Below, piece after piece: positions 11,137 through 52,757 of a stretch of 64,000 nucleotides of DNA (position 1 is its first letter; every line of letters begins with the position of its first letter). Source of the stretch: Escherichia coli. Lineage in GTDB: Bacteria; Pseudomonadota; Gammaproteobacteria; Enterobacterales; Enterobacteriaceae. The position numbers and the translations under genes were made by a program. Location of the stretch: assembly GCF_044324785.1 (NCBI RefSeq), contig NZ_CP172127.1; one strand, written 5' to 3'. The notes beneath the pieces are model-generated. The model made no database searches, was not told where the DNA came from, and saw only the letters and a program-made list of their open reading frames with translations.

Positions 11137-11477
11137 TGGAATGATCTCCTCGAAAATTTATTTACATTACTGGTAAATCGTTAACATGTGTTAATTCGGA
11201 ATATTATATCATAACAGGAAAAATCTCGTCTATTAGAAATAAAAATATTCTAAAGCCATAATATTATATTTAATCTCATAAAAACTAATGTCGTTGGCGG
11301 ATTTTTTTATAATTGTGTTTTGAAAGCATACTTGCTTTTAATATGTGGAAATCATTAAGGCTAGAATAAAACTCGTATCCGCCCCAGGAAGCAAACAGCC
11401 TGCTTTATTGCAGGCTATTTGCTGGATGACTTACTAAATCCTTCACATCTATTCCTGATAAAAAGGAACAGAATTTA

Positions 11478-12932
11478 TTACCGGAACGGCGGCTCATTAA
11501 ATGTTCGTAATTTACGTGAATGCAGTCGGTCGCCTTCTGCGCGCAGCAAATCGATCGCCCGAATGCCAATTTGCAGGTGTTCGGAAATAGCGCCTTCATA
11601 AAAACGGTTAGCCTGACCGGGAAGTTTAATCTCACCATGCAACGGTTTATCTGAAACACACAATAGTGTCCCGTATGGCACGCGGAAACGATATCCTTGC
11701 GCGGCAATGGTTGCACTTTCCATATCAATTGCTACGGCCCGGCTTAAGTTAAAACGAAGTGCAGAAGCTGAGTAACGTAATTCCCAGTTCCTGTCATCTG
11801 TGGTTACCACAGTGCCAGTACGTAGCCGCTGTTTAACTTCCTCACCGGGCCTGCCGCTGACTAACTTGGTAGCGTCATAAAGCGCACGTTGCACTTCAGC
11901 AATGCTCGGAATAGGAATATCGGGCGGCAGTACCGCATCAAGAACGTGGTCATCGCGTAAATAAGCGTGTGCAAGTACATAATCTCCAATGGCCTGGCTT
12001 TCACGTAAGCCACCACAGTGACCAATCATCAACCAGACATCCGGGCGTAGCACCGCCAGATGATCGCAGATGGTTTTTGCATTTGACGGTCCCACGCCAA
12101 TATTCACCAGAGTAATACCCTGACCATCGGCGGTAATTAAATGCCATGCTGGCATCTGGTGTTTTTTCCATGCAAGGTCGGAAATGGCTTCTTCTGGCGC
12201 TTTGGTTTCGGCGGTGATCCAGTTCCCGCCAGCACAAGAAAGGGCAATGTAGGGACTATCAGGGTCGAGGATCTGGCTGCATCCCCAACGAACGAATTCA
12301 TCCACATAACGTGTGTAGTTGGTAAACAAGACGAACGGCTGAAAATGTTCAACTGGCGTACCGGTGTAATGGCGCAACCGCGCGAGGGAAAAATCGACGC
12401 GGCGCGCATCAAAATGCGATAGCGGGGAGAATTCCGTTGGATGATAAATGCCGTCTGCAGTTTCATCGCCAATTTGCGCCAGTTCTGTTGTCGGGAAGTA
12501 GCGAGTTAACCCAGCGCTCATTGAGCGATCAAGGGTCAATTCAGAGCCATCGATGACATAAGGATAAGGGATTTCATGCTGCGAGGGTTGCACCGAGATA
12601 TGCGCACCATAATCCTGATACAACAACGTAAGTTGTTCATTGAGATACGAACGAAAGAGAGTAGGGCGAGTAATCGTGGTGGTGTAGCTGCCTGCGTGGG
12701 TAAAGCGACCAAATGCGCGCGTTTTGGGGGGATTGGTTGTGCTACCGTCCCAGGTTACGGTCAGTGATGGATAGACAAAAAGACCTTGTTTGCGGGCGTT
12801 TTCATCAGGTAATTCGCCACTTGTAATATAGTTGCCAATGGCGTTGCGTAAAGCGACTACAGATTGCTCATACAACGCGTCGAGTTTATCCAGTGCCTGA
12901 GCTGGGGTCAGACCGGAGCCCTTATTATTCAT
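11478..12932 (-). CDS. amn: AMP nucleosidase
   Basis: 484-aa product from internal Met (MNNKGSGLTPAQALDKL...) with AGGAGA RBS; the ORF track extends 52 codons upstream. Confidence 0.93.
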   Translation of the reverse strand: MNNKGSGLTPAQALDKLDALYEQSVVALRNAIGNYITSGELPDENARKQGLFVYPSLTVTWDGSTTNPPKTRAFGRFTHAGSYTTTITRPTLFRSYLNEQLTLLYQDYGAHISVQPSQHEIPYPYVIDGSELTLDRSMSAGLTRYFPTTELAQIGDETADGIYHPTEFSPLSHFDARRVDFSLARLRHYTGTPVEHFQPFVLFTNYTRYVDEFVRWGCSQILDPDSPYIALSCAGGNWITAETKAPEEAISDLAWKKHQMPAWHLITADGQGITLVNIGVGPSNAKTICDHLAVLRPDVWLMIGHCGGLRESQAIGDYVLAHAYLRDDHVLDAVLPPDIPIPSIAEVQRALYDATKLVSGRPGEEVKQRLRTGTVVTTDDRNWELRYSASALRFNLSRAVAIDMESATIAAQGYRFRVPYGTLLCVSDKPLHGEIKLPGQANRFYEGAISEHLQIGIRAIDLLRAEGDRLHSRKLRTFNEPPFR

Positions 12933-13033
12933 GTGTGTCTCCTGTTCCATACAATTACCGCACATCCGATAGTATGTCACAGAAATGTGAAACAAAAGTG
13001 TAAGACGAAGATCGGATGATCTTCGCCAGGCTA

Positions 13034-14350
13034 TCAAGCGCGTTGATTGTCTTTCATCAACAAAGCGGTCATTGCGGAAATCAGGCATCCAGCCAGCAAA
13101 TAAATAGCGACGCTATGCCAGTTCCCGGCAAAGTAAGTGATGAGTGCAGCGGCAATAAAAGGTGTAAATCCACCGCCAACCACACTGGCAACCTGATAAC
13201 CGACTCCAGCACCACTGTAGCGATAACTGGCACCAAACATTTCGGTAAACATCGGTTGTTGCACACACACCACCATGTCATGCGCAATGTTTGCCAGCAT
13301 TATGGAGAAGAAAACTATCCAGAAAATAGATTGTGCTTCAAGCGCCATAAAGAAAGGAAATGCGCTCAACGTTCCGATCAACGCGCCTGTGATATAAACC
13401 CTGCGGCGACCAAAACGATCGGCAAGCCAGGCAAAACAGGGAATTGTCAGGCAGCTTAATCCACCGACCAGCAAACCAATATTAAGGAAAAGTTCGCGCG
13501 GTAACCCCATATTCTGGGTTGAATAATTAAGTGCGAAGGCGGTAACGATGTACATCGTCAGCAACTCGCACAGTCGTAGCGCAATAATCTTCAGGAAAGC
13601 ACCGGGATGTCGTAATAGTGCTTCGATAACCGGGATGCGTTTTTTCGCGGCCGCTTGATTATGTTGCTGTTGTTCAAATTCCGCGGACTCCTCCATGCCA
13701 TTGCGCACCCACAATGCTCCCAGTACCAGTACGATGCTAAACAGGAAAGGAATGCGCCAGCCCCAGCTTAAAAACTGTTCGTCAGTCGTCATCATACTGA
13801 TCAATGAAACCAGTCCAGTTGAAAGCAGTAAACCTACACCGTAGCCAACTTGTACACCGCTACTGTAAAAGGCTTTTTTATTTTTCGGAGCACTTTCAAC
13901 AGAAAGCAACGCTGCGCCTCCCCATTCGCCGCCGACGGCAAATCCCTGTATGGCACGCAGCGTCACCAGTAAAATGGGGGCCCACCACCCAATGGTCGAG
14001 AAGGAAGGAAGAATACCAATCAAGGCTGTCGCGATACCCATCATCCAGACGGTCAGCATTAACATGCGCTTACGTCCCAGTCGGTCGCCAAAGTGACCGA
14101 AAATGACACCGCCGAGTGGTCGGAAAAGGAAGCCGACACCAAAGGTGGCAAATGCGGCGAGCGTTCCCATCGCCGGGCTTACTTGCGGGAAAAACTCGCG
14201 ATTAAACACCAGTGCGGCGGTAATGCCATAGAGTAAAAAATCATACCAGTCGACGACGGCACCAGCGAAACTGCCGAACGCAGCTCGTCGGGCGCGACTT
14301 AACGAAAGCGTCCCTTCATCGGGACGAGTGGAGATGAGCGTGGAGTCCAT
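13034..14350 (-). CDS. shiA: shikimate/dehydroshikimate MFS transporter
   Basis: 438 aa, 12-TM MFS pattern, recognised as ShiA; synteny with amn. Confidence 0.93.
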   Translation of the reverse strand: MDSTLISTRPDEGTLSLSRARRAAFGSFAGAVVDWYDFLLYGITAALVFNREFFPQVSPAMGTLAAFATFGVGFLFRPLGGVIFGHFGDRLGRKRMLMLTVWMMGIATALIGILPSFSTIGWWAPILLVTLRAIQGFAVGGEWGGAALLSVESAPKNKKAFYSSGVQVGYGVGLLLSTGLVSLISMMTTDEQFLSWGWRIPFLFSIVLVLGALWVRNGMEESAEFEQQQHNQAAAKKRIPVIEALLRHPGAFLKIIALRLCELLTMYIVTAFALNYSTQNMGLPRELFLNIGLLVGGLSCLTIPCFAWLADRFGRRRVYITGALIGTLSAFPFFMALEAQSIFWIVFFSIMLANIAHDMVVCVQQPMFTEMFGASYRYSGAGVGYQVASVVGGGFTPFIAAALITYFAGNWHSVAIYLLAGCLISAMTALLMKDNQRA

Positions 14351-14664
14351 AATGATCCTGTTTGTACTGTCTTTTTATAATTAGTATGGAAAAGGTAACT
14401 CACATTGCCGTCGATCTATAAACGAACCTTATGAGACTACCTCGACAGAGCGCATCTGCAAATGATTTTATGGCTGATTAGCGGCAACATGAAAAATTCG
14501 CTGGAAGATGAAAGCGCAGGAGTTGCTGGTGTTGTTTAAGGATTAAGCAGAGGACCCACAGGTTCGAGATATGAAACATAAAAGTCCGCATATGCACAAA
14601 ATTGCACCCTGATGATTCTGATAGACTGCATTGCATTATAACCAGTAGGGAGGCGAGGTTAGTT

Positions 14665-15666
14665 ATGTTTTTAGTATCATTGTTGAGACGTATTGCATTT
14701 AGTTACTACGATTATAAAGCTTATAATTTTAATATTGAAAAAACAGACTTTGTTGTCATACATATCCCCGATCAGATTGGCGATGCTATGGCCATCTTTC
14801 CAGTTATTCGGGCGATTGAAATGCATAAAATAAAGCATCTTTTAATTGTTACTTCGACTATTAATTTAGAAGTCTTTAATTCGCTCAAACTTGAACAGAC
14901 TAAATTAACATTAGTCACAATGACTATGCAGGATCACGCAACATTAAAAGAAATAAAAGATTTAGCGAAGAACATAACACAGCAATACGGTACGCCGGAT
15001 CTTTGTATAGAGGCGATGCGTAAAAAGAACCTGAAAACGATGATATTTATCAGTCAGTTGAAAGCAAAAACGAATTTTCAGGTTGTTGGTTTAACCATGA
15101 AGTGCTATTCCCCTTTGTGTAAGAGCGCGTCCCGGATGGATCAGAATCTCCGGGCTCCTGTACCCATGACATGGGCATTTATGATGCGTGAGGCGGGTTT
15201 TCCAGCAGTCAGGCCAATATATGAATTGCCACTAAGTAAGGATGTACTCGATGAGGTGCGCGAGGAAATGCGATCGTTAGGATCTTACATTGCGCTTAAT
15301 TTAGAAGGTAGCTCGCAGGAACGTACATTTTCATTATTGATTGCAGAAAATCTAATAGCAAAAATTCAAAGTGAAACAGATATACCAATAGTGATCGTTC
15401 ATGGACCAAAAGGGGAAGATAAAGCAAGGGTATTAGTGGATTGTTATAATAATGTCTACCGTTTATCCTTATCACCCTCGATTAAACGTTCAGCAGCAAT
15501 CATAAAAGATGCTTATATCGCAATAACTCCTGACACCTCAATATTACATATGGCAAGTGCCTATAATACCCCGTTGTTGCAATTTATGCTGATTATAAAA
15601 CGCGATGGCCCGCAATGGCCAATGTTTCGGAGTCAGTCGTCGTTGGGCAAAAAATTGACAATATAA
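14665..15666 (+). CDS. yeeL: putative glycosyltransferase (heptosyltransferase-like) YeeL; possibly frameshifted near 3' end
   Basis: GT9-like sequence; start at Met 22 with GGGAGG RBS; the family-typical C-terminus (SLDEFAKALKSVLARI) continues in another frame after 15666. Confidence 0.55.
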   Translation: MFLVSLLRRIAFSYYDYKAYNFNIEKTDFVVIHIPDQIGDAMAIFPVIRAIEMHKIKHLLIVTSTINLEVFNSLKLEQTKLTLVTMTMQDHATLKEIKDLAKNITQQYGTPDLCIEAMRKKNLKTMIFISQLKAKTNFQVVGLTMKCYSPLCKSASRMDQNLRAPVPMTWAFMMREAGFPAVRPIYELPLSKDVLDEVREEMRSLGSYIALNLEGSSQERTFSLLIAENLIAKIQSETDIPIVIVHGPKGEDKARVLVDCYNNVYRLSLSPSIKRSAAIIKDAYIAITPDTSILHMASAYNTPLLQFMLIIKRDGPQWPMFRSQSSLGKKLTI

Positions 15667-16299
15667 GTCTGGATGAATTCGCAAAGGCATTAAAAAGTGT
15701 TTTGGCGAGAATATGAAGCAGTACGTATGCAAAGTAATGCCGATCTGTTATGAACGGTGGTGTCATCAATACTCTGAGGCTGGTCAATCATCACAGAAAG
15801 CCAGCCTTTGGATCAAAGCTGTACTCACCGAAAATGATCATAGTCACACCGAACGCGATTCAGGTGGAACTAAAACAATGTAATGTATTTCACCATCATA
15901 AATAAGACAACCTGAACTTAAATCTCCGTTAACAGGCATACATTATTATGAGTGGTACTGATGTAATTTGTAATATTGAAATATGAACTGATATTGTTTG
16001 TTCGTCCTGACATATCTTCCTCCATGATGTAATTAGCTAAACATTAACGTAATTTGACTGCATAGCAACAATGATAGCCATCAAAAATAGCTCATGTACT
16101 TCGTTTTCCGCTGGCGTGGAACAGGTGGTTATACCATGTGTGAAAGCGTTTATTAAAAAAGAAAGGAGGCTCAACTATCTTCAGACTAACAGGGAGGTAT
16201 GGGAAAATGCAGGTATATTAATGGAGCGTTTGACAGCAAACGAATGTAAAAGGCAGAGCGCCCCGAATGGAGCACTCTGTAAGAAAATATAGCGAAAAA

Positions 16300-24915
<8,616 letters not shown>

Positions 24916-25113
24916 GCTTACCTTCCCTGAACGAGCTAACATAAATGCGCCCTTTCTAGCACAGCGAAAAAAAGTAAATCCTGATAGCAATATGATTGAA
25001 AATTAATAACTTTTCGTTAAGCAGTTTTGAGTGTGAGTTGCAAGAGGGGAGACTACTGAATTACTCAAGTTTTATAATCGAGGGGAAAATGGTGATGGCG
25101 TTCATAGCAAAAC

Positions 25114-26294: not shown

Positions 26295-26384
26295 GGAGAG
26301 ATGCCGGAGCGGCTGAACGGACCGGTCTCGAAAACCGGAGTAGGGGCAACTCTACCGGGGGTTCAAATCCCCCTCTCTCCGCCA
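26295..26384 (+). tRNA. serU: tRNA-Ser (CGA)
   Basis: 90-nt sequence with long variable arm, anticodon loop CUCGAAA, ends GCCA; prophage integrase lies immediately 3'. Confidence 0.9.
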
Positions 26385-26469: not shown

Positions 26470-27498
26470 TCACGGGTTTCTGCTCAGAACTGTGACATCC
26501 AGCACCGGAATATCCAGAGTCGGAGTTACTGCGGGTTTGCGATCATACGTCAGCACTTGCGCCTCTGTTTTGTGACCAGAGAACAACTGCTTTTCTTTAC
26601 TGCTTCCGTCGTAGTCTGAGATCCCCTTCGCTTTTAAATCGTGAAACGTTCCCGTAATCGGGTAGCCCAGCTTTTCACTTGCCGCCGCCCTGGCTTTACG
26701 CCAGATATCGTTAAATCCGGTATAGCTGTATTGCCCGCCATATTTGTTACAGACCACGAAATGTTGTCCTCCCAACGATTTCGCCTGCTCAAGTGCGAAC
26801 GTCAGTCGCTCTGAATACTGTTTGATCTGCTTTTTGCCAGTCTTACCCTGTTGGATAAACAACCCCTTACTCATTACCTGATCCCACGTCAGCTTTCGTA
26901 TATCGCCGATCCGCGTGGCGCACAGATAGGCGATCTCCATCGCGCACTGTAAAACGGGAGATGCCTCCTGATAAATTGCGATATATTCCTCGTCCGTGAA
27001 ATAGTAGTCGCGGGGCTTGAGGGAAAATTTACTGACGCCCTGGCATGGATTCCCTTTTACGTATCCGCGTTCGTATCCCCAGCGGAATACTCGCGACATA
27101 CTGGCTTTTTCATGGTTCGCCTGTGTTTTGCTTTTCAGCCCCCGCTTGTCCATATACAGCCGCACGTGAGCAGGTTTTATGTTGTCGGCTTTCATTTTCC
27201 CGAACGCGGCGAGTAATTTCTTCTGGTGCTGCAGATAATCCTTTTGTGTACGCTGACCGAGTTCCAGATAGTAGGTGCTGTTGAGAAATTTGTTCCAGAG
27301 TTTACTGAACGTCATGACATCAATAGCATCATTCAGGATCTCTTCGTATTTCACCCATACCTGAGCAATTGACAGATCATTAATTTTACCCAGCGTAATA
27401 CACTCTCGGGGCGTTGGTTTGAAATAATAGCTGTATTTGTTTTTATAAACGCGGGGTGGCAGCTTATTATCTTCCGCGTTTTTTCGTGTTCTGCTCAT
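26470..27498 (-). CDS. prophage tyrosine integrase
   Basis: 342 aa; adjacent to tRNA-Ser 3' end, transcribed toward it; catalytic-domain pattern (ATRIGDIRKLTW..., HDLKAKG...Y). Confidence 0.9.
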   Translation of the reverse strand: MSRTRKNAEDNKLPPRVYKNKYSYYFKPTPRECITLGKINDLSIAQVWVKYEEILNDAIDVMTFSKLWNKFLNSTYYLELGQRTQKDYLQHQKKLLAAFGKMKADNIKPAHVRLYMDKRGLKSKTQANHEKASMSRVFRWGYERGYVKGNPCQGVSKFSLKPRDYYFTDEEYIAIYQEASPVLQCAMEIAYLCATRIGDIRKLTWDQVMSKGLFIQQGKTGKKQIKQYSERLTFALEQAKSLGGQHFVVCNKYGGQYSYTGFNDIWRKARAAASEKLGYPITGTFHDLKAKGISDYDGSSKEKQLFSGHKTEAQVLTYDRKPAVTPTLDIPVLDVTVLSRNP

Positions 27499-39447: not shown

Positions 39448-40371
39448 TTATTGGTTTCTGAGGAAAGCGATTCTTGAAAGGGTCATTTGCGTCTGGCAGT
39501 CGACCATTTTCTTGACTTCAGCATCTGTTCCCTGCATTGAAACTTTACCGCACATAGCATCCTTAGTTTTGATCCACTGACGCTGAGAAGGCAGCAAATC
39601 TTTTTTCTTCGCCGGGGTTAACTTGCTCCAGACGGTACTCAAATCAGAGTCGGCATTCGCAAATGCCATTCGGGACTGATCAAGGCTGTCAGCTTTTTGT
39701 GGCTGAAGTTGTGCCTGTCTCTCTATTTGCTTCTCCGCCTCATACTTAGCCTGTTCCTGCGCCCTGAGTTGCACCTGTTGTTCCGCTTCAATTTGGCTCT
39801 GTTGGGCATCCTTAGCCTGCTGGATTTTCTGCTGCTCAACGATCGGGTTGATAATAGAAAGTGATGTCAGTAAAGCGGCGCCCACTGATATCGGATTATC
39901 AGAAGAGGTTTTTACAAAAACGTTTTTCTGATCGTCGGTCGCCTGCACGGTGTAGGTGATACGTTTGGAAAAGGCGTTTGCGTTGTTCTCCAAAAACAGG
40001 CTTTCCATTTGCTTGTCGAGATTACGATTAAAATTCTTTCTGTAATCATCAGAAAGCTGGACGTATTCGTTCGCAGGTAGAGTCATCGTCACGGTCCCTT
40101 CACAAGTTTTCATTGTGCTGCCCGTGTCACTTGATGTTGTGGAGATTTCAGAGATGGCTAGTTTGATCTTGTCCAATGTGCTTCGTTTGGTCTGATTAGT
40201 GACATCAGGGTATTTATCGACCTGTTCAGAGAGTCCTTCATAAGCAGATTTTTTTAATAAATCCATAAGCGCTGACTGGGTTATTTCCGAAGAACAACCG
40301 ATCACATCTTTTTTGTTATCACAGCCTGTAAGGGCAATGGCGAGTAAGAGTACTGAGTATTTTAATCTCAT
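39448..40371 (-). CDS. lipoprotein with C-terminal DUF1311/LprI-like domain
   Basis: signal peptide plus lipobox LTGC; Gln-rich coiled region; C-terminal SQRQWIKTKDAMC...C pattern. Confidence 0.65.
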   Translation of the reverse strand: MRLKYSVLLLAIALTGCDNKKDVIGCSSEITQSALMDLLKKSAYEGLSEQVDKYPDVTNQTKRSTLDKIKLAISEISTTSSDTGSTMKTCEGTVTMTLPANEYVQLSDDYRKNFNRNLDKQMESLFLENNANAFSKRITYTVQATDDQKNVFVKTSSDNPISVGAALLTSLSIINPIVEQQKIQQAKDAQQSQIEAEQQVQLRAQEQAKYEAEKQIERQAQLQPQKADSLDQSRMAFANADSDLSTVWSKLTPAKKKDLLPSQRQWIKTKDAMCGKVSMQGTDAEVKKMVDCQTQMTLSRIAFLRNQ

Positions 40372-41398: not shown

Positions 41399-42064
41399 AT
41401 GAAAGCCGACAACTTAAGAATTATAGAGAATGGCAAATATGTTTTCGATATGTTCTTGGATACTGGTGAATTTTACTATACAAGTCATGCCTTTGACACG
41501 AGAGAAGATGCAAAAAGCTGGATGGAAGAATGGCAGATTTGGGCAAATAATGTATCGAGTGGGAAAGTAAGTAGTATTTATTATATTTTACAAGTGCCTG
41601 ATACTTGGGCCGGTTCTTCAGATAAAAATAACCCTTACTCGGGACTTTATGTGAAAATAGGGCGTTCCAATAATGTGCTAAAAAGGTTGTCTAACCTGCA
41701 GACAGGTGCATTTGGTCAATTAATATTACACGCTTTGGAACCTGGTGGTTCAGAAAAAGAAAACTATCTTCATGAAAAATTTAGCAACGAAAGACGTCAA
41801 GGTGAATGGTTTGTTTGTACTAAGGAACTTACCAAGCATATATTTACAACATGGTTTAAAAACAAAATGCTCCCACCAGAACATCAAATAAAAATAATGC
41901 AGCTCGCAGAAAGAATAGGTATTTATTCGCATGTTCATACACTAATGGGGGGGAAGCCAGACTTAGTAAACCCATCTATTAGTGAACCTTGGGAATGCGA
42001 AAAATATGTTTTGGTTGATATGATTTATAGCTCTTTAGCAAAGCAAGTTAATCATAAAAAATAA
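41399..42064 (+). CDS. T5orf172 (GIY-YIG superfamily)-like protein
   Basis: 221 aa; core GLYVKIGRSNNVLKRLSNLQTG...ENYLHEKFSNERRQGEWFVC matches T5orf172/MUG113 pattern. Confidence 0.5.
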   Translation: MKADNLRIIENGKYVFDMFLDTGEFYYTSHAFDTREDAKSWMEEWQIWANNVSSGKVSSIYYILQVPDTWAGSSDKNNPYSGLYVKIGRSNNVLKRLSNLQTGAFGQLILHALEPGGSEKENYLHEKFSNERRQGEWFVCTKELTKHIFTTWFKNKMLPPEHQIKIMQLAERIGIYSHVHTLMGGKPDLVNPSISEPWECEKYVLVDMIYSSLAKQVNHKK

Positions 42065-44569: not shown

Positions 44570-44848
44570 ATGAAACACATCTGTAAAAAGTCACATCGTC
44601 ACGACAGTATGTTTGATGTTCTTTCCGCAAATCAGGGGAACGTTGGGCGGCACAAATGTTGTGGATGTGCCTATGATAAAGGTATGTGGCACGCATTAAT
44701 TGGCGTTCCACGTGCGGTTGATGACTCTGTTTTAGGTGATTTGCCCGAAAGCCAGGCCGGGCATGTACGTCATAAAGATGCTTTTGAAGCATATAACATG
44801 GGATATGACCATGGGATGCATAAAAAAGCCTACGGCATGGCCTCATAA
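44570..44848 (+). CDS. hypothetical Cys/His-rich small protein
   Basis: 92-aa ORF followed by a clear terminator. Confidence 0.4.
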   Translation: MKHICKKSHRHDSMFDVLSANQGNVGRHKCCGCAYDKGMWHALIGVPRAVDDSVLGDLPESQAGHVRHKDAFEAYNMGYDHGMHKKAYGMAS

Positions 44849-44868
44849 CCAGGTGTAACTTATTAACT

Positions 44869-44896
44869 AACCCGCTTCGGCGGGTTTTCTTTTTTA
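44869..44896 (+). terminator. rho-independent terminator
   Basis: CCCGC-TTCG-GCGGG hairpin followed by TTTTCTTTTTT. Confidence 0.7.
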
Positions 44897-44966
44897 TAGA
44901 ACCCTGCGATGTGAAAACGAATAATAAATTGTGCAAATAGTGCAGTTTTTATTATTCGAGGTAATT

Positions 44967-45608
44967 ATGAAAACCTTCTATGAGGGCTGGCCTGAAACTT
45001 TCGTTAGCCGGTTAGATATGTTACGGGCGTTGGATGATCGCGGTTCGACCCGGAGGCTCTATCTTGAGCGGACCGGAGCAATATTTGGCGCTCTGGCAGA
45101 AGAGATACGTACAGCCGTTGCCGGGCATCCTGAAACTGACGCGAGTGAACTTGATATCGGGCCGCTATATCGCTATTACAAACGTGGAGAAAAGGGGGAT
45201 CCGCTGGCTGACTTACTTATTAAATTGGCTCCACCAACCTGTGAACGGGTTCGTATATCTCCTGAAGTGTACACAATCCCGTATCTGTTTTTTGCACTGT
45301 TGATAGCGCAAGGCGCTGACAACGATGCCCGAGATTTTTTCAATATGATGATGCGACCGTTGATCATCGCCTACCGCTTCAAACAACTGGCGCGCTACCT
45401 TGGCACGAAGGGCGGAGGACGACCACAGCACAGATTAAAAAGTGAAGCCATTGAACTGGCTGATCGTTTTTTTACTGAAAACCCGACTGCGCCATTATCG
45501 CGTGGTGTGCAATACATATCCGGTATTTTTGTGGCGAAATACTCCGATCCACCTGCAGCCTCGACGATTAGAAAATGGTTAATTTCAATTTACAGGAGTG
45601 ATAAATAA
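44967..45608 (+). CDS. hypothetical protein
   Basis: 213 aa from MKTFYEGWPETF with GAGGT RBS. Confidence 0.45.
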   Translation: MKTFYEGWPETFVSRLDMLRALDDRGSTRRLYLERTGAIFGALAEEIRTAVAGHPETDASELDIGPLYRYYKRGEKGDPLADLLIKLAPPTCERVRISPEVYTIPYLFFALLIAQGADNDARDFFNMMMRPLIIAYRFKQLARYLGTKGGGRPQHRLKSEAIELADRFFTENPTAPLSRGVQYISGIFVAKYSDPPAASTIRKWLISIYRSDK

Positions 45609-45759
45609 TGACCATAAACGGTTTAATCCCCTATAAAACCGTTTAATAAAATTCACGACGTGAATATAATTGTTCATTATTCCCTCATTGTATCTGGCGT
45701 TATGACAAATGCCATAAAATACTGTATAAATGTACAGGCGGTGGCGTTAGGGGGAAGAC

Positions 45760-45939
45760 ATGAATATTCAAGAATCTATAGGCGAACTACCGGAAACATG
45801 CCGGGCTGTTATCAAGCGTAAGGACGGACACATCGTTGGTGTGCGTGTTCTGACTGATGATGAACGGATTGCCAGCCTGATGGCGTTTCTCGAGTTGGCA
45901 GAAATAGCTGGATATACTATTACACCCCCTGACGCGTAA
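45760..45939 (+). CDS. hypothetical small protein (59 aa, below track threshold)
   Basis: manually translated MNIQESIGELPETCRAVIKRKDGHIVGVRVLTDDERIASLMAFLELAEIAGYTITPPDA; GGGGAAG RBS. Confidence 0.35.
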   Translation: MNIQESIGELPETCRAVIKRKDGHIVGVRVLTDDERIASLMAFLELAEIAGYTITPPDA

Positions 45940-46016
45940 AACACGGTATAATATCGGTGCTGGATTGAACACCCGGCACCATTTTCTGAACACTGCCGCG
46001 CCACCTGGAGTTAACC

Positions 46017-46613
46017 ATGGCGCAGCATTCATTTATCAGGGTATCCGGCGGTTCGCTAATACCCGCGACACCAGACACGCAACGCTGGTTGACTGAACGA
46101 GTCAAACCAGGTGCTGTTGTGTATGCAGATTTCAAACAGGCGCGTAATCCCGCGTTTCATCGTAAATTTTTCTCACTTCTCAACCTGGGCTTTGATTACT
46201 GGCATCTCTCCGGAGGGGCTATTTCTCCTGCAGAGCGCGAACTGGTTCACGGCTACGTTAAGTTACTGGCTTATTACGGTGGGCATGGTGATGTCATGGC
46301 TGAGCTGGCTGATCAGTATCTTCTCGATGAGTCGGAAAAGCGCGCGGGGAATATCAGTGCGGTTAAGTCGTTCGAGGCGTTTCGCGCCTGGGCGACTATG
46401 GAAGCTGGATTTTATGACGTTCATCAGATGCCAGACGGCAGTGTGATGCGCGTACCTCGTTCAATCTCGTTTGCTGCGATGGACGATCTTGAGTTCGGTC
46501 AACTGTATTCAGCCGTTTTAGATGTGCTGTGGAATTATATTTTGTTCCGCACGTTTGCCTCTCAGGAGGCCGCTGAAAATGCCGCCGCGCAGCTGCTGGA
46601 TTACACATCATGA
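46017..46613 (+). CDS. DUF1367 phage protein (YbcN-like)
   Basis: FIRVSGGSLIPA...ARNPAFHRKFF closely matches YbcN-type proteins. Confidence 0.7.
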   Translation: MAQHSFIRVSGGSLIPATPDTQRWLTERVKPGAVVYADFKQARNPAFHRKFFSLLNLGFDYWHLSGGAISPAERELVHGYVKLLAYYGGHGDVMAELADQYLLDESEKRAGNISAVKSFEAFRAWATMEAGFYDVHQMPDGSVMRVPRSISFAAMDDLEFGQLYSAVLDVLWNYILFRTFASQEAAENAAAQLLDYTS

Positions 46614-46903
46614 AAAAAATCGACCTGAGAAAAGCTGCACGCGGTCGCGCTTGTACTGTGCGTATCCCCGGTGTGTGCAATCACAATCCTGAAACCAGTG
46701 TACTGGCTCACTACCACCTCGCCGGAACATGCGGAACAGCAATCAAACCACACGATATGCAGGGCGCTATCGCCTGCAGTGCGTGTCACGATGCTATCGA
46801 CGGACGTACAAAAACAGATTACGAGCGTGATTCCTTATTACTGATGCACACAGAGGGCGTTTTAAGGACGTTGGCCATCTGGCGTAACGAGGGATTCATC
46901 TGA
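46610..46903 (+). CDS. DUF1364 phage protein (YbcO-like, putative nuclease)
   Basis: 97 aa with Cys/His-rich pattern of YbcO-type proteins. Confidence 0.7.
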   Translation: MKKIDLRKAARGRACTVRIPGVCNHNPETSVLAHYHLAGTCGTAIKPHDMQGAIACSACHDAIDGRTKTDYERDSLLLMHTEGVLRTLAIWRNEGFI

Positions 46904-47574
46904 TGAGTAACGAGTATTTGTTGGAATATACCCGCATAAAACTGCGCGCTGCATTGCGGGATTTGTCTGGTGGTTCTAAGGGGCAGCTGGAAGCATTGTG
47001 TGAGCACCCGCCGGCAGACAAAAACGCATATCCACGCAAACATATTCATCGTGTGCAACTGGAGGACCGGACCGTTGATGCTCTGGTTACGCCAGTTTAC
47101 GCCCTGGAAAGTTTCAGCAGACGTCGTCCCGCGCCGCCGATGAATGATTTTGAATTCGCTGATTCATCGTGGCGCCGCGCCGTGAATTCGCTCGACGTTA
47201 GCCAGCAGGCGTGGTTGCGCTATTGCTACGGTGGTCACCTGGCGTTCAAACACCAAACAGCTATTTGTGAGGCTGTCTGGAGTCGCTATAAAGGACACAT
47301 CCCCGCGTCAACTCAGAGAAAAGTAGCTAAGCGCCTGCTTTCGTTGGTGTGGTTGTCCGTGCAGGCGGTTGCAGCAGCAAATAAACGCGAGGATTTTAAG
47401 GAGATGGCTGGATCTGCGCTAGCTGGAATGTTGTCTGTTTCTCGTTCCACCTGGTGCGAAACATACTCCCCGCACTGGGTAGGAATGAAAGAGGCGGTGA
47501 GAGCACTTGATGAAATGGCACTTCTTGCAACTTTGCATCATTATCAAAACCATTTAGACGACGTTTGCGTATAA
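46903..47574 (+). CDS. putative late-gene antiterminator (Q-like, positional)
   Basis: 223-aa ORF immediately upstream of the lysis cassette. Confidence 0.45.
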   Translation: MSNEYLLEYTRIKLRAALRDLSGGSKGQLEALCEHPPADKNAYPRKHIHRVQLEDRTVDALVTPVYALESFSRRRPAPPMNDFEFADSSWRRAVNSLDVSQQAWLRYCYGGHLAFKHQTAICEAVWSRYKGHIPASTQRKVAKRLLSLVWLSVQAVAAANKREDFKEMAGSALAGMLSVSRSTWCETYSPHWVGMKEAVRALDEMALLATLHHYQNHLDDVCV

Positions 47575-47935
47575 TGCTTGCAAAACCGAACAAAACAGGC
47601 CATATTAAACGCTAATTTGGTATGTTGCCAAATTTCTAAGAACCTCGCCACGGCGGGGTTTTGTCGTTTCTGAATCAGGAAAAATCATGTCTGAACCTCT
47701 AACCGCTGGCGTTGCTGCTGGCTCGGCGGGGGTGACGTTTGCTGCGTTATTTCCTGAGGCAACACCTGCAGTGATGATCTGTGCGCTGGCAGGCGCAGCT
47801 CTCTATGTGTTGTCGTCCGGGCAGCATCGATTCTGGAAGCAGGTTAGACTGGCCCCCTGAATCTCCAGACAACCAATATCACTTAAATAAGTGATAGTCT
47901 TAATACTAGTTTTTAGACTAGTCATTGGAGAGCAG

Positions 47936-48301
47936 ATGATTGATGTCTTAGGACCGGAGAAACGCAGACGGCGTACTACACAGGAAAAGATCGCTATTGT
48001 TCAGCAGAGTTTTGAACCGGGAATGACGGTCTCCCTTGTTGCCCGGCAACACGGTGTGGCAGCCAGCCAGTTATTTCTCTGGCGCAAGCAATACCAGGAG
48101 GGAAGTCTTACTGCTGTGGCCGCAGGAGAGCAGGTCGTTCCTGCCTCTGAACTTGCTGCTGCCATGAAGCAGATTAAAGAACTCCAGCGCCTGCTCGGCA
48201 AAAAAACGATGGAAAATGAACTCCTTAAAGAAGCCGTTGAATACGGGCGTGCAAAAAAGTGGATAGCGCACGCGCCCTTATTGCCCGGGGATGGGGAGTA
48301 A
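47936..48301 (+). CDS. insC: IS2 transposase OrfA
   Basis: [29 protein letters not shown]... recognised as IS2 InsC. Confidence 0.9.
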
Positions 48302-49164
48302 GCTTAGTCAGCCGTTGTCTCCGGGTGTCGCGTGCGCAGTTGCACGTAATTCTCAGACGAACCGATGACTGGAAAGATGGTCGCCGCAGCCGTCACTCAG
48401 ATGATACGGATGTGCTTCTCCGTATACACCATGTTATCGGAGAGCTGCCCACGTATGGTTATCGTCGGGTATGGGCGCTGCTTCGCAGACAGGCCGAACT
48501 TGATGGTATGCCTGCGATCAATGCCAAACGTGTTTACCGGATCATGCGCCAGAATGCGCTGTTGCTTGAGCGAAAAACCGCTGTACCGCCATCGAAACGG
48601 GCACATACTGGCAAAGTGGCCGTGAAAGAAAGCAATCAACGATGGTGCTCTGACGGGTTCGAGTTCCGCTGTGATAACGGAGAAAAACTGCGAGTCACGT
48701 TCGCGCTGGACTGCTGTGACCGTGAGGCACTGCACTGGGCAGTCACTACGGGCGGCTTCGACAGTGAAACAGTACAGGACGTAATGCTGGGAGCGGTGGA
48801 ACGCCGCTTCGGCAACGAGCTTCCGGCGTCTCCAGTAGAGTGGCTGACGGATAATGGTTCATGCTACCGGGCTAATGAAACACGGCAGTTTGCCCGGATG
48901 TTGGGGCTTGAACCGAAGAACACGGCGGTGCGGAGTCCGGAGAGTAACGGCATAGCAGAGAGCTTCGTGAAAACGATAAAGCGTGACTACATCAGTATCA
49001 TGCCTAAACCAGACGGGTTAACGGCAGCAAAGAACCTTGCAGAGGCGTTCGAGCATTATAACGAATGGCATCCGCATAGTGCACTGGGTTATCGCTCGCC
49101 ACGGGAATATCTGCGGCAGCAGGCCAGTAATGGGTTAAGTGATAACAGGTGTCTGGAAATATAG
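48259..49164 (+). CDS. insD: IS2 transposase OrfB (DDE catalytic domain)
   Basis: [23 protein letters not shown]... recognised as IS2 InsD; overlaps orfA in -1 frame. Confidence 0.9.
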
Positions 49165-49405
49165 GGGCAAATCCACAGGTTATTTTCGCACTCATTTCGT
49201 TTGTTGGCGGTGTGTATTGCGCTGAGACAGCATCAGCCATCATTACCGGTATTCTGAACGCGGTGCTGAGTCACCTGAACCCTCCCGTAACAGTAAAAGT
49301 CTCTCCCGCCATTGGTGCACTGGTTGCATCAGTAATCAGCGTTACATCACTGTTGCGGATCATGTCACAAGCTCGTTTATGGAAATCAGATAAGGGGATG
49401 AAATA

Positions 49406-49678
49406 ATGACCCTGCACTCTGTCCTCATTAATGCCAATGCAATTATCTGTCTGATGCTGGCACTGCGGTTGATGTTTTTTCAAAAAACAGGCCGCTATCG
49501 TTTTTTCATCTCACTAACTGCTTACCTGGCGATTCTGTCTGCTGCGTGGATAGCCCTACGAATTTTTTATGGGAAATATACGCAGGTTGATCCCGCAGAG
49601 TTCTTTCTCAACCTCACCATCTGTATTGCTGTCTGGCGGGCACGAGGGAATATTTCAAAAATAACAGGAGACAGGTAA
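49406..49678 (+). CDS. small membrane protein of lysis cassette (holin/antiholin-like)
   Basis: 90 aa with ~3 hydrophobic segments. Confidence 0.45.
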   Translation: MTLHSVLINANAIICLMLALRLMFFQKTGRYRFFISLTAYLAILSAAWIALRIFYGKYTQVDPAEFFLNLTICIAVWRARGNISKITGDR

Positions 49679-50160
49679 TGACGGATCCTAAATGGCTAAT
49701 TGAGGCTCGAAAAAACCTCGGCATTCGGGAAATGAAAGGGAAGCAACATGCTGCAGAAATTGTGCAGTACTGGAAAGATATCAAACGCGGCGGCATTAAG
49801 GATGACGAAACACCGTGGTGCTCCGCCTTCACAGGAGCAATGCTGGAACGTGCAGGTATTCGCTCAACGCGTTTTGAGTCTGCGAATTCTTATCTCGATT
49901 GGGGTAATGAACTGAAGGAACCCGCCTATGGATGCATTGCTATTCTGTCTCGGTCTGGCGGTGGTCACGTCGGCTTTGTTGTCGGGAAAAATGCCGCCGG
50001 GGATTTAATGATTTTGGGGGGCAACCAGGCAGATGAAGTAAATATCAAAGCTTTTCCGAGCTCACGAGTTACCGGCTATCGCTGGCCTGTTGATGTGCTG
50101 GATGTGCCGTCAACCTTGCCGCTGCTGATGGGAGGTGAATTATCAACTTCGGAGCAGTAA
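49678..50160 (+). CDS. putative endolysin, CHAP/NlpC-P60-like Cys/His peptidoglycan hydrolase
   Basis: 160 aa; candidate catalytic TPWCSAF and GGGHVGFVV; position after holin genes. Confidence 0.55.
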   Translation: MTDPKWLIEARKNLGIREMKGKQHAAEIVQYWKDIKRGGIKDDETPWCSAFTGAMLERAGIRSTRFESANSYLDWGNELKEPAYGCIAILSRSGGGHVGFVVGKNAAGDLMILGGNQADEVNIKAFPSSRVTGYRWPVDVLDVPSTLPLLMGGELSTSEQ

Positions 50161-50162
50161 CC

Positions 50163-50354
50163 ATGAAAAAGTTCTTTCTACTGGCAGCGTTGGTGCTTGC
50201 GGGTTGCTCAAACACGACGTACACGGAAGCAACGCATCCCAACGGCACGACCGTAAAGCACATTTCTATCGCACCGGGTACGAAGATCACAACCGCAAGT
50301 GGTGGCTGTATCGACTCTGCCGGGGCTGCGGCTTCATGCCCATTGGATCAATGA
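50163..50354 (+). CDS. small lipoprotein (possible spanin-like lysis accessory)
   Basis: 63 aa, signal peptide with lipobox LAGC. Confidence 0.4.
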   Translation: MKKFFLLAALVLAGCSNTTYTEATHPNGTTVKHISIAPGTKITTASGGCIDSAGAAASCPLDQ

Positions 50355-50552
50355 GGGTAATTGGCATAGGCAATTTAACCGTATAAGTGCGCCTTCACCG
50401 GCTTCCTGCAAATAAGTGCATTTCGTAATTTATAAAGTTCTAAGAAGCAAGTCCATAAGCTTAACATTACAGCACAAACGATCTGTTTTTAGTTCTATGG
50501 GTGTTCTCTTTTTTCGGGAATATATTTTAGTAACCAGAATTAAATTCTAAAA

Positions 50553-50578
50553 GGCCTCGCAACTGCGGGGCTTTTTTA
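50553..50578 (+). terminator. rho-independent terminator
   Basis: CCTCGC-AACT-GCGGGG hairpin followed by CTTTTTT. Confidence 0.6.
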
Positions 50579-50730
50579 TATCCGTATTTCGCTGCGCACC
50601 GCATGCGCATATCAACCACCGAACCAAACCCTTTGGAATGAGCCGTTGAGGATGTCAGTTAGTGCTGGCGAGCCTCGGTGGGCTGACTTCCTATGCGGCA
50701 ACGGTTCATCTCAAAGAGTAGGTACACGCT

Positions 50731-51228
50731 ATGAAATCATTAACCCTCTTCAATCAACCAATCCGCGTCGGGGATGATGGCATGATCTGCCTCACCGACA
50801 TGTGGAAAGCCAGCGGCAAAAGTGACGCTGAATCGCCGTACCACTATCTGCGAAACAAGCAGACCAAAGAGTTCCTTGTCGAGCTGGAGAAAAACCACGA
50901 ATCTGTGGTTTTCACTGCCCGCGGCGTACACGGCGGAACCTATGGCGGGAAGTTTGTTGCTTACGATTATGCGGCTTGGTTAAACCCAGGGTTCAAGTAT
51001 GCAGCCTATAAAGTACTCGATGACTACTTCACCGGAGAGCTTCGGCATCGTAATAGCTTAAGTGCGCAGCTCAACATGAAGTGTTATGAGTTTGACCAGA
51101 AGAAAGACATGGCGAGCTTCTGTGGGCAAGGACTCGCGGCATGGCGTTATACAAAGCCTGTGCTGATCGCTGAGATGAACACCTTGGCAAACCAACTGCA
51201 GATTACGCTCCCTGGACTTCCTGGATGA
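50731..51228 (+). CDS. KilA-N domain protein
   Basis: 165 aa; N-terminal pattern consistent with KilA-N DNA-binding domain. Confidence 0.6.
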   Translation: MKSLTLFNQPIRVGDDGMICLTDMWKASGKSDAESPYHYLRNKQTKEFLVELEKNHESVVFTARGVHGGTYGGKFVAYDYAAWLNPGFKYAAYKVLDDYFTGELRHRNSLSAQLNMKCYEFDQKKDMASFCGQGLAAWRYTKPVLIAEMNTLANQLQITLPGLPG

Positions 51229-51467
51229 GTAATCGCGTCATCGAATGCGCCTCCAGAGCGGGGCGTGACTTCTCAGAGTTCATGAAAGGCGAGAAGGGTA
51301 TGGAGGACGCGCTGTCCTCGGTGAATCAGTTTGGCGAGCAGATTCGACTCAACGGCTGCGTCAATCATCACTTTGTCAGTTACATGATGCGTAACGCGAT
51401 CATGCAGGCATTCATGGACATGGCAAGCACTGAGAAAAAAGAAGAGCGCCGACGTAAACGAGCGTAA
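51225..51467 (+). CDS. hypothetical protein
   Basis: 80-aa ORF overlapping previous stop. Confidence 0.35.
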   Translation: MSNRVIECASRAGRDFSEFMKGEKGMEDALSSVNQFGEQIRLNGCVNHHFVSYMMRNAIMQAFMDMASTEKKEERRRKRA

Positions 51468-51617
51468 GCAAAAGCTGAGTAGTCATTCCAAAGCTCATCC
51501 CCGGGCGGGCTTGATAATGGATAGTCATCACAGATTTAAAATGTGGCAATGAAGTCTCTTTAATAAGCCAATTCTTAGCATTATTCTGACCTCTCCAATT
51601 GAAAAGGAGGTTGAGTA

Positions 51618-51809
51618 ATGTCAGATGAAATCCGTCGCTGTAAAATCGTCAGTATGTATGAACAACCCGAGGGAACGTTCATTAAGTTCGCTCCAGTGAA
51701 ATTCTATGACGAAGGCAACAACCCTCATGTCGGCGAGCAAGCAATCGTAGAGATGGATAACGGCAAAGTGATTACCGTAAACCCGGGTGAGATTCACTTT
51801 ATTAAATAG
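51618..51809 (+). CDS. hypothetical small protein
   Basis: 63-aa ORF with AAGGAGG RBS, followed by terminator. Confidence 0.45.
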   Translation: MSDEIRRCKIVSMYEQPEGTFIKFAPVKFYDEGNNPHVGEQAIVEMDNGKVITVNPGEIHFIK

Positions 51810-51830
51810 TGACAAAACTGATTGTGATGA

Positions 51831-51852
51831 AACCCACTGCGGTGGGTTTTTT
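51831..51852 (+). terminator. rho-independent terminator
   Basis: CCCAC-TGCG-GTGGG hairpin followed by TTTTTT. Confidence 0.7.
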
Positions 51853-51917
51853 ATTGCCATCACCATGGGCAGACCCATCGTAATGGCAAAAGCAGGGCGA
51901 GGTTATCGCCCTGTGTC

Positions 51918-52187
51918 TTAACCGCGTGCCTCACGACCCTCCTCGTCCTCAGGTACACGATATCGCCAGTATTTGTCCGGCCTAACCCAAACAACATCCC
52001 CGCCGCTATCAACTCTGAACTTATTTATGACTTTTGTTGAAAGTGCTTGGTTGCCGTCTGCATTTTCCTTCAAATGTTGCTCATTACCAACTTTGACCAA
52101 ATAATCAACGACGTCCTGCTGGTATAAGCATCCATCTTTTTGCAGTGCAGATAACATCCAATTTGATACATCTGCAACATCTAACAC
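51918..52187 (-). CDS. hypothetical protein (moron, opposite strand to late genes)
   Basis: 89-aa ORF downstream of DUF2158-like gene. Confidence 0.4.
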   Translation of the reverse strand: MLDVADVSNWMLSALQKDGCLYQQDVVDYLVKVGNEQHLKENADGNQALSTKVINKFRVDSGGDVVWVRPDKYWRYRVPEDEEGREARG

Positions 52188-52201
52188 AGTGGTTGATTGG
52201 G

Positions 52202-52420
52202 TTATGGCTTTGGGATGAATTTATCTAACGACTCTTCTGGGAAATTACCACTGTCTAATTTCCTTCCTGCAAACCATTGGCAACGGTAGTTACCATTGAA
52301 GGTATCCGATAAGGTAGTAAGTGGTTTTTCAACAGTCATTGCTGGGCCACCTGATTTCAATACGACTAGCTCCCCTTTATTAAATTTTGCAACTGGAGTT
52401 TGTGAAGGTGCTTTAGCCAT
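52202..52420 (-). CDS. DUF2158 (YodC-like) small protein
   Basis: 72 aa; GELVVLKSGGPAMTV motif. Confidence 0.55.
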   Translation of the reverse strand: MAKAPSQTPVAKFNKGELVVLKSGGPAMTVEKPLTTLSDTFNGNYRCQWFAGRKLDSGNFPEESLDKFIPKP

Positions 52421-52757
52421 TTTATGTCCTTAAAAGTTAGTGATATGACAATGATTAGATGGCGACAATAGGTATAAATTTCAATAATAACAACTTGACT
52501 TAGCTCACAAAATTTAAAGGAAATCTTATGGCAAAACCGGACTGGGGAGCACTGCAACACCAGTTCCTCGCCGTCCATGCCAAAACGGGTATATCACCGA
52601 AAGAATGGTGTGACGCGTAGGGACTGAGCTTCGCAACAGCCGCCGACGTATAAAAAACAATTGCGCAATGTGCCAAAGAGCTGGTGCCTGATGTAAGAGA
52701 CGTTTTACTTAAACGAGAGGCCGCCTTTTTGTTTTAAGACGGCACACCTTCAACAGG

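Follow-up and report, generated by a model that had tools for sequence, protein, structure and literature searches.

An IS2 insertion splits the first gene of a PF16931/PF05449 lysis module in an Escherichia coli prophage

The 64,000-nucleotide stretch of Escherichia coli DNA analyzed here (the window, whose positions are used throughout) contains the lysis region of a prophage that appears to be of the lambdoid type with a contractile tail and to be integrated beside tRNA-Ser(cga), in a host that is probably a close relative of strain N3. All genes, IS2 features and terminators described below are on the + strand. The gene for a Q-type late antiterminator (46903..47574, 223 aa; PF06323 Phage_antiter_Q at 133.8 bits, PHROG 304) lies immediately 5' of the lysis cassette. 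A terminator scan identified a tR'-like intrinsic terminator behind it, consisting of a 10-bp stem and then a T run (47639..47672). From 47687 the lysis genes follow: a gene of the family PF16931, which is split by an IS2 element, a gene of the family PF05449, and an endolysin gene of the TIGR02594 type. This succession of Q, terminator and lysis genes is that of a lambdoid Q-dependent late operon, and the position of the terminator would fit the lambdoid Q / PR' / tR' layout. By a consensus promoter scan, neither a PR' candidate on the + strand nor an outward promoter at the right end of IS2 was found; the scan gave 3 promoter-like hits, where chance alone would give 3.4. A perfect TATAAT is present at 47570-47575, as a candidate PR' element only.

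Apart from the split gene, the lysis cassette is intact, as are the structural genes in the window. The second holin-family gene (49406..49678, 90 aa; PF05449 Phage_holin_3_7 at 67.7 bits, PHROG 217) begins with an ATG that overlaps the stop codon of the split gene (TAATG), has its own Shine-Dalgarno sequence (AAGGGGA at 49391-49397), and encodes a protein with 100% amino acid identity to that of a gene in phage vB_EcoM-705R4. Its stop codon is in turn overlapped, again as TAATG, by the start of the endolysin candidate (49678..50160, 160 aa; TIGR02594/CHAP-like, with 137.1 bits for TIGR02594 and a weak CHAP hit). As judged from its sequence, this protein has neither an N-terminal signal nor a transmembrane domain (TMD), and is therefore presumably holin-dependent. 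The 63-aa ORF that comes next (50163..50354) is a putative lipoprotein by a lipobox signal match only (LPAM_1), and the same position is occupied by a “hypothetical protein” in 705R4 and YZMc3-1. The lengths of the structural-gene ORFs equal the annotated lengths in the related prophage of YZMc3-1, as compared by eye. With the other ORFs compared at full length, IS2 was the only lesion seen within the window; the prophage continues past 64000, with its tail/attR region beyond.

The initial annotation had proposed that removing IS2 and one CAGGT would join two fragments in frame into a holin-like protein of about 124 aa. When this was done in silico, the frame held while the length did not: a 384-nt ORF results, encoding 127 aa. 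The rejoined protein shows 100% identity to the annotated “putative holin” WP_001294589.1, and its gene is 100% identical in nucleotide sequence to that of strain YZMc3-1. Comparison with the annotated intact gene in E. coli RM10042 bears out the reconstruction, with 127 of 127 amino acids identical, 2 nucleotide differences that are both synonymous, and only one copy of CAGGT at the site. The protein falls into Pfam family PF16931 (Phage_holin_8; 44.4 bits against a cutoff of 26.4, residues 1-117) and into PHROG 198, “holin” (category lysis/holin, E = 2.7e-34), which confirms that IS2 splits a holin-family gene. Its hydropathy peaks at residues 25-43, 49-73 and 97-115 correspond to three TMDs, followed by a basic C-terminal tail, and an alignment of 11 members shows M1, G36, S59, G63 and A99 to be invariant in the family.

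The insertion point is at codon 52/53, in the loop that connects TMD1 to TMD2, and the core of the protein is split after residue 53. Both fragments were delimited by sequence and by alignment to RM10042. The 5' fragment (47687..47844; codons 1-52 and 2 nt) reads into IS2 and stops at a TGA at 47858-47860, giving a product of 57 aa (53 native residues plus RLAP), and the identical 57-aa product was called on Logan contig SRR31073010_132. The 3' fragment (49181..49406) runs from the third nucleotide of codon 53 through the stop codon and retains TMD2 and TMD3 together with the charged C-terminus and the invariant residues S59, G63 and A99. Since the product is limited to a stub of 57 aa in which a single conserved TMD remains, the PF16931 gene is knocked out. 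In the annotation, 47687..47844 and 49181..49406 belong under one label, that of an IS2-interrupted PF16931 gene. An already known insertion sequence has here inactivated a gene in the usual manner, which is a common kind of prophage damage. Insertion sequences often inactivate single prophage genes, thereby aiding prophage decay or domestication; the O157 Sakai prophages reportedly carry IS629, and the cryptic prophages of K-12 are likewise said to carry IS elements. There, as here, single genes have been hit, whereas the present case is distinguished by IS2 being the only lesion seen in the window.

The element itself (47845..49175) aligns without gaps to IS2A of K-12 MG1655 (in yaiX, NC_000913.3 381260-382590), which is likewise a 1331-bp member of the IS3 family. 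With 57 mismatches in 1331 positions (95.72% identity) and 11 substitutions in OrfB relative to IS2A, it represents an IS2 isoform, of which 100% identical copies exist in other E. coli. Both elements share the termini TAGACTGG...CAAATCCA; the left inverted repeat (IRL, 47845..47885) is fully identical to that of K-12 and the right one (IRR, 49135..49175) differs at one position. The repeats are imperfect and about 41 bp long, and 31 positions match over about 42 when IRL is aligned to the reverse complement of IRR. The gene orfA (InsC/InsA-type; 47936..48301; PF01527 HTH_Tnp_1) encodes a 121-aa protein identical to K-12 InsC1 at all 121 positions. In the overlap with orfB lies the heptamer A AAA AAG (48253..48259), read in orfA as the codons GCA AAA AAG, which, by analogy with the IS3 family, is the predicted site of a programmed -1 frameshift. 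The InsD-type orfB (48259..49164; 301 aa; PF00665 rve and PF13683 rve_3) is open, has no internal stops, and shares 290 of 301 amino acids with K-12 InsD1. The identical OrfA, the 301-aa OrfB with its rve domain, the heptamer and a 5-bp target duplication are thus common to both copies. The duplicated target is ATTAC on both sides of IS2A, in contrast to CAGGT in the window, and the window copy, unlike IS2A, has a prophage lysis gene as its target. The transposase genes and the late operon are read in the same direction.

The junctions read ...TTCTGGAAG CAGGT / TAGACTGGCCCCCTGAATC ... GGGGCAAATCCA / CAGGT TATTTTCGC..., with the two copies of CAGGT at 47840..47844 and 49176..49180 and with TTCTGGAAGCAGGTTAGACTGGCCCCC as the insertion junction sequence. 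CAGGT occurs once at the empty site of RM10042, as it does in related prophages. Because the empty sites carry a single copy and rejoining restores the intact allele, the repeat is a true target-site duplication rather than a 5-mer repeated by chance, as the initial annotation had said of this IS2 and its intact 5-bp duplication. An active-looking IS2 copy very probably transposed into the gene, duplicating CAGGT. IS elements are a frequent source of assembly errors, which makes it natural to consider a mis-assembled copy, or a fortuitous repeat beside an old insertion. We regard this as practically negligible, considering that an independent assembly of short reads shows the left junction without a single difference (a Logan contig of SRR31073010, 3186/3186 identical to window positions 44687..47872), that hundreds of genomes have the single-CAGGT empty site, that the rejoined protein is 100% identical to its intact counterpart, and that a 5-bp duplication is the signature of IS2. 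For the right junction, exact look-ups of two possible 3'-fragment products returned no records.

The same insertion was found in 0 of 5,426 complete E. coli genomes. In 443 of these complete genomes the PF16931 gene is present at at least 99% identity, and the site is contiguous and uninterrupted in every one; the intact protein was found on at least 1000 contigs, as against one contig (2 samples) with the truncated product, and only one other public assembly contig has the junction in common with the window. On these grounds the insertion is rare, lineage-specific and probably recent. Its flanks are unmutated, and the inverted repeats, orfA, orfB and the A AAA AAG heptamer of IS2 are all intact, so that the relatively recent origin suggested by the initial annotation probably stands; “recent” is to be taken in a relative sense only, because the undamaged duplication and flanks rule out a long period of decay without dating the event. 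Versions of the gene product comprising only the N-terminal 44-49 aa in the protein database had raised the suspicion of an IS hotspot, which was dismissed when the contigs were read: the short versions examined (47- and 49-aa forms) stem from a CGA-to-TGA nonsense allele (L018, L021) or from metagenome contigs ending at that point. This R48-stop allele is independent, belongs to a diverged prophage variant, and was absent from all 443 complete genomes with the gene.

The two holin-family genes form a module that extends well beyond this prophage. In 10 of 10 sampled unrelated phages (HK639, mEp390, SPN1S, Mana, Pylas, P27, RSY1, Seifer, LPM4 and TR2), PF16931 and PF05449 genes occur as an invariant pair followed by an endolysin, which is of several different types, and the window gene is placed in the same way, directly upstream of its PF05449 partner and the endolysin. 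Lambdoid, epsilon15-like, P2-like and N4-like phages as well as the Stx2e phage P27 carry the pair. The two proteins show no similarity to each other, and the idea that they might be paralogues was rejected. The same families are found in the same order in KS5 (gp35/gp34), AP3 (gp13/gp14) and Mana, which are Burkholderia P2-like phages, and in the N4-like Klebsiella phage Pylas (075/076), in each case immediately before the endolysin gene, with ORFs that overlap or abut. Identity of the split gene to the first genes of these modules is 34-38%. Unlike that of the window, the four modules are intact, and they are accompanied by endolysins and spanins of other types. By position and topology, Lynch et al. 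(2010) named the PF16931-type partner gp35 of KS5 a putative antiholin (PMC3091744), as was done for gp13 of AP3 (PMC5674055), and the holin and antiholin roles in all four modules are predictions only. GenBank records of the Center for Phage Technology (CPT), on the same basis, call the PF16931-type gene “holin or antiholin”, and the PF05449/DUF754 gene bears the label “holin” in most records sampled. For PF16931 and PF05449 proteins the searchable literature offered in-silico annotations but no experiments, and the same was true of the literature on SPN1S, TIGR02594, DUF754 and phage 705R4. A paper on the UE-M6 holin was rejected as a precedent, that protein being an unrelated class II holin. 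The pair is a widespread, experimentally uncharacterised two-gene lysis module.

Our overall account, which we consider very likely, is that IS2 hit the first gene of the late operon, the upstream member of the PF16931-PF05449-endolysin module, and we infer that the loss of the PF16931 protein breaks lysis control. The initial annotation had gone further, in taking the split gene for the holin and the prophage to be probably lysis-defective; this is not established, given that an intact PF05449 gene precedes the endolysin and that its partner has been called a putative antiholin. We see a serious case, somewhat short of an even chance, for the split gene being the holin or the indispensable half of a two-component holin. 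Lysis after induction would in that event be abolished, because the lost protein was the hole-former or its obligate partner: the endolysin would be trapped in the cytoplasm and virions would not be released. The Pfam name (“putative phage holin”) and the PHROG category are in line with such a role, as are the three TMDs and basic tail of the protein, the conservation of an intact gene in the 443 genomes, and the need for a hole-former that an endolysin lacking a secretion signal implies. In addition, the strict co-occurrence of the two genes and the overlap of their stop and start codons in all ten phages suggest joint action. What speaks against a holin role is the second, intact holin-family gene with its own ribosome-binding signal directly before the endolysin, together with the opinions found in papers and database records, all of which give the name “holin” to PF05449/DUF754 and “putative antiholin” or “holin or antiholin” to the PF16931 type (PMC3091744 and PMC5674055 among them).

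If these labels are right, the split gene encodes an antiholin, an inhibitor that sets the timing, while the actual holin is the PF05449 protein; we hold this to be possible, with appreciably less than an even chance. Since the lost protein would then be the antiholin, lysis would be kept but mistimed, probably early, and the prophage would remain lytic with an early trigger and a smaller burst. The homologues KS5 gp35 (37.6% identity), AP3 gp13 and Pylas_075 are all labelled putative antiholins, and it is the PF05449 gene that stands immediately before the endolysin and is mostly recorded as “holin”. Inspection of the sequences showed a dual-start motif in neither gene, which makes a separately encoded antiholin plausible. 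These antiholin annotations, however, derive from gene order and TMD counts alone, and the lack of sequence similarity between the two proteins also weighs against the assignment. Separate antiholins of well-studied phages, such as T4 rI and P2 lysA, are not known to be strictly adjacent to and co-inherited with their holin, and the invariant pairing is no less compatible with the two proteins being structural partners. The probability that is left falls to little effect of the insertion, or to a polar block of late transcription.

Phage lambda offers a parallel. In its S-null mutants, Sam7 for example, a lambdoid late operon has likewise lost the function of the lysis gene that comes first behind Q, PR' and tR', and Sam7-type mutants are the model for absence of lysis, with virions accumulating inside a non-viable cell. 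Lambda S encodes holin and antiholin from one gene and is unrelated in sequence to the split gene, whereas the window keeps a separate second holin-family gene, so that the S-null phenotype is not simply transferable. The suggestion that the insertion may stabilise the lysogen is unsupported: a holin defect in lambda S mutants traps the virions while the induced cell still dies and induction is not prevented. The prophage is best flagged as damaged in its lysis module and not as proven non-lytic.

A different consequence would follow if polarity were dominant, with Rho-dependent terminators in IS2 ending late transcripts after the first 160 nt of the operon; no lysis or virion proteins would then be made and the prophage would be fully defective. 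We consider this improbable. Polymerase modified by the Q proteins of lambda and 82 passes terminators of both the intrinsic and the Rho-dependent kind across distances above 20 kb, and the operon is governed by a Q-type antiterminator; on the + strand, moreover, no intrinsic terminator was predicted from 47745 to 49544, a range that includes all of IS2. The precedent for polarity is galEP3 (gal3), the standard reporter for Rho-dependent polarity, in which IS2 with its Rho-dependent terminators lies at the start of the gal operon (PMC3737525). The likeness is that in both cases a polycistronic operon has IS2 close to its 5' end, here right at the beginning of the late operon, and it disregards the relative orientation of IS2; unlike the gal operon, that of the window has a Q antiterminator and a tR'-like terminator ahead. 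Because Q-modified RNA polymerase generally reads through terminators, Rho-dependent ones included, we would expect IS2 polarity to be largely overridden after induction, and the PF05449 gene, the endolysin gene and the structural genes are probably still transcribed.

The strain provides a naturally occurring knock-out of one gene, the first member of the module, in an otherwise intact-looking prophage, and its comparison with a precise-excision derivative could reveal which member is the holin. That the loss of PF16931 is more than decay seems very unlikely to us. Recurring knock-outs of the gene, namely the IS2 allele and the R48-stop allele, could be selected as yielding a non-releasing or differently timed element. 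Alternatively, the co-oriented IS2, with no terminator predicted between orfB and the PF05449 gene, could supply Q-independent read-through into the PF05449 gene and the endolysin gene, in which case lysogens would leak the second holin and the endolysin at a low level, which could for example promote vesicle or cargo release.

The IS2 element (47845..49175) is exactly 1331 bp long and is bordered by CAGGT on both sides (47840-47844 and 49176-49180), the window reading ...CATCGATTCTGGAAG-CAGGT-TAGACTGGCCCCCTGAATCTCCAGACAACC... across the left junction (47820-47890) and ...TGTCTGGAAATATAGGGGCAAATCCA-CAGGT-TATTTTCGCACTC... across the right one (49150-49200). In-silico excision of IS2 together with one CAGGT joins the fragments 47687..47844 and 49181..49406 into an open reading frame of 384 nt, a multiple of three; the initial annotation had correctly foreseen an in-frame product, but its estimate of ~124 aa was slightly low (127 aa). 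The comparison with related prophages that it had proposed gave full agreement: the rejoined protein matches WP_001294589.1, a "putative holin" from E. coli O43 RM10042, at 127/127 residues. The RM10042 gene carries CAGGT once at this position and differs at two nucleotides only, both synonymous, and the gene of strain YZMc3-1 shows 100% nucleotide identity. Because the empty RM10042 site has one CAGGT and rejoining restores an identical protein, we read the repeat, as the initial annotation had done, as a genuine target-site duplication rather than a coincidental 5-mer.

Aligned without gaps to IS2A of K-12 (NC_000913.3 381260-382590), the element has 57 mismatches (95.72% identity) and retains the imperfect terminal repeats of ~41 bp; IS2A is likewise flanked by a 5-bp duplication, but of ATTAC. 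The orfA protein (47936-48301, 121 aa, Pfam HTH_Tnp_1) is identical to K-12 InsC1, orfB (48259-49164, Pfam rve and rve_3) is open over 301 aa, 290/301 of them identical to InsD1, and at 48253-48259 the orfA frame contains the IS3-family slippery heptamer A AAA AAG. The window holds only this one IS2 copy; chromosomes and plasmids of other E. coli carry 100% identical copies of the isoform. On this evidence the element, an isoform of IS2, seems able to transpose.

The holin-like identity proposed for the rejoined protein is upheld by matches to Pfam PF16931 (Phage_holin_8; residues 1-117, 44.4 bits against a gathering cutoff of 26.4) and to PHROG 198 "holin" (E = 2.7e-34). Three hydropathy peaks (residues 25-43, 49-73 and 97-115) precede a basic C-terminal tail, and an 11-member alignment of the family has M1, G36, S59, G63 and A99 invariant and P4, A37, F60 and G98 nearly so. 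The target CAGGT corresponds to codon Q52 plus two bases of V53, in a short loop ahead of the second transmembrane domain (TMD2), and the present product consists of 53 native residues and RLAP (57 aa), without TMD2, TMD3 or the charged tail. Judged by its sequence, the interrupted gene is a knock-out. As a side observation, 34 nt of this gene (window 49299..49332; nt 277-310 rejoined) match at 100% a "CRISPR"-annotated feature of E. coli ES6 (NZ_CM184335.1 1108652-1108685), which resembles a spacer gained against prophages of this family.

Among 5,426 complete E. coli genomes, none contained the 3.1-kb IS2-bearing stretch (0/5,426), the best matches being two pieces that meet across an empty site. 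The gene is present in 446 of these genomes, with at least 99% identity in 445, and a 61-nt probe across the target was unbroken in each of the 443 genomes containing it. In a 15-billion-protein collection, the intact protein occurs on at least 1000 contigs and the 57-aa truncated product on one 13-kb Logan contig (SRR31073010, 2 samples), which is identical to window 44687..47872 (3186/3186) and ends ~30 nt into IS2; short-read assemblies typically break inside IS copies. Given these counts, flanks without mutations and an undamaged IS, the insertion is rare, lineage-specific and, as the initial annotation had suggested, probably recent. Prophage genes are commonly damaged by insertions, IS2 has long been known, the family of its target gene is catalogued in Pfam, and events of this kind are known; the specific allele appears undescribed, with one other public assembly only. 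An independent loss-of-function allele, R48 CGA to TGA (window 47828..47830), was seen at two database loci (L018 1501-1884 and L021; a 22-kb Logan contig of SRR11463940, and ENA ERZ1753401), on a prophage variant ~94.6% identical upstream; it occurs in 0/443 complete E. coli genomes carrying the gene.

A lysis defect, which had been considered probable, is not established, since the split gene is not the sole holin-family gene: an intact PF05449 (Phage_holin_3_7) gene of 90 aa (49406-49678, + strand) starts at its stop codon (TAATG overlap) and lies beside the endolysin. The latter, a TIGR02594/CHAP-like peptidoglycan hydrolase of 160 aa (49678-50160, +), overlaps the PF05449 gene in the same way (TAATG) and has neither an N-terminal signal nor a TMD. 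Directly behind it, a 63-aa lipoprotein ORF (50163..50354, +) without a C-terminal TMD is kept at the same position, as "hypothetical protein", in vB_EcoM-705R4 and YZMc3-1; neither an i-spanin/o-spanin pair nor a unimolecular spanin was recognisable in the cassette.

PF05449 homologues were found in 169 phage records, from which ten phages were sampled for gene order: lambdoid HK639 and mEp390, epsilon15-like SPN1S, P2-like Mana, RSY1 and LPM4, N4-like Pylas and TR2, the Casjensviridae phage Seifer and the Stx2e phage P27. All ten have a PF16931 gene directly upstream and an endolysin directly downstream of the PF05449 gene; given this order, endolysins of several unrelated types, and no similarity between the PF16931 and PF05449 proteins, the two genes form an invariably co-inherited (10/10 sampled), probably translationally coupled pair. 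In this strain, one half of a widespread two-gene lysis module is naturally knocked out, which is mildly useful. Published opinion names the PF05449/DUF754 member holin and the PF16931-type member "putative antiholin", the latter being KS5 gp35 (Lynch et al. 2010, PMC3091744) and AP3 gp13 (PMC5674055), and Center for Phage Technology records call the PF16931-type gene "holin or antiholin". These labels were derived from the order of the genes and their numbers of TMDs, and we found no experiments behind them in the literature. That the knock-out abolishes lysis is a serious but tentative prospect; that lysis continues but is mistimed is possible, if somewhat doubtful.

Little effect, or a polar block, we regard as unlikely. 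IS2 carries Rho-dependent terminators, and its galEP3 insertion is a standard reporter (PMC3737525). The PF05449 gene, which retains its own Shine-Dalgarno (AAGGGGA), appears to have lost its coupling to upstream translation. A Q-type antiterminator gene (46903-47574, +; PF06323, 133.8 bits) and a strong intrinsic-terminator-like hairpin with a T run (47639-47662, +) precede the lysis genes in what resembles the lambdoid Q / tR' arrangement, and no intrinsic terminator was predicted on the + strand from 47745 to 49544, which spans all of IS2. The Q proteins of lambda and 82 modify polymerase so that it passes intrinsic and Rho-dependent terminators. Because IS2 lies downstream of the Q gene, Q-modified polymerase would by analogy pass through it, and the late genes are probably still expressed upon induction. 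The suggested stabilisation of the lysogen is without any support: in lambda S mutants, a holin defect blocks release, not induction or host death, and by analogy the same would hold here.

The integrase gene (26470-27498) adjoins tRNA-Ser(cga) (26295..26384), beside mtfA. The chromosomal flank (window 1-16000) matches E. coli N3, the closest complete chromosome, at 100% identity, and in N3 this site is empty (L005, the N3 locus, 2240-2329; order mtfA, tRNA-Ser, zinT). The prophage encodes a DnaB-type helicase, lambda-type terminase, portal, protease, capsid and P2-type baseplate; the structural ORFs of the window are all as long as their annotated counterparts in the related YZMc3-1 prophage, and the portal gene, frameshifted in that prophage, is open here. 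No second lesion is visible in the window part of the prophage, which runs on past 64000. A ~2.5-kb segment from the lysis genes to the terminase (50087..52600), including a KilA-N/ORF11CD3 protein (50731-51228), is not shared by the RM10042 and 705R4 prophages, which are collinear elsewhere, and by this comparison is a variable "moron"-type region. Also in the prophage, the accessory region has genes for a protein ending in an LprI (lysozyme inhibitor) domain and for one with a T5orf172/MUG113 domain (39448..40371, - strand, and 41399..42064). A 2896-aa ORF (16300..24990, - strand), an Ig-like domain protein by the N3 annotation, contains internal tandem repeats of ~609 bp with 85-90% identity at 19841..21880.
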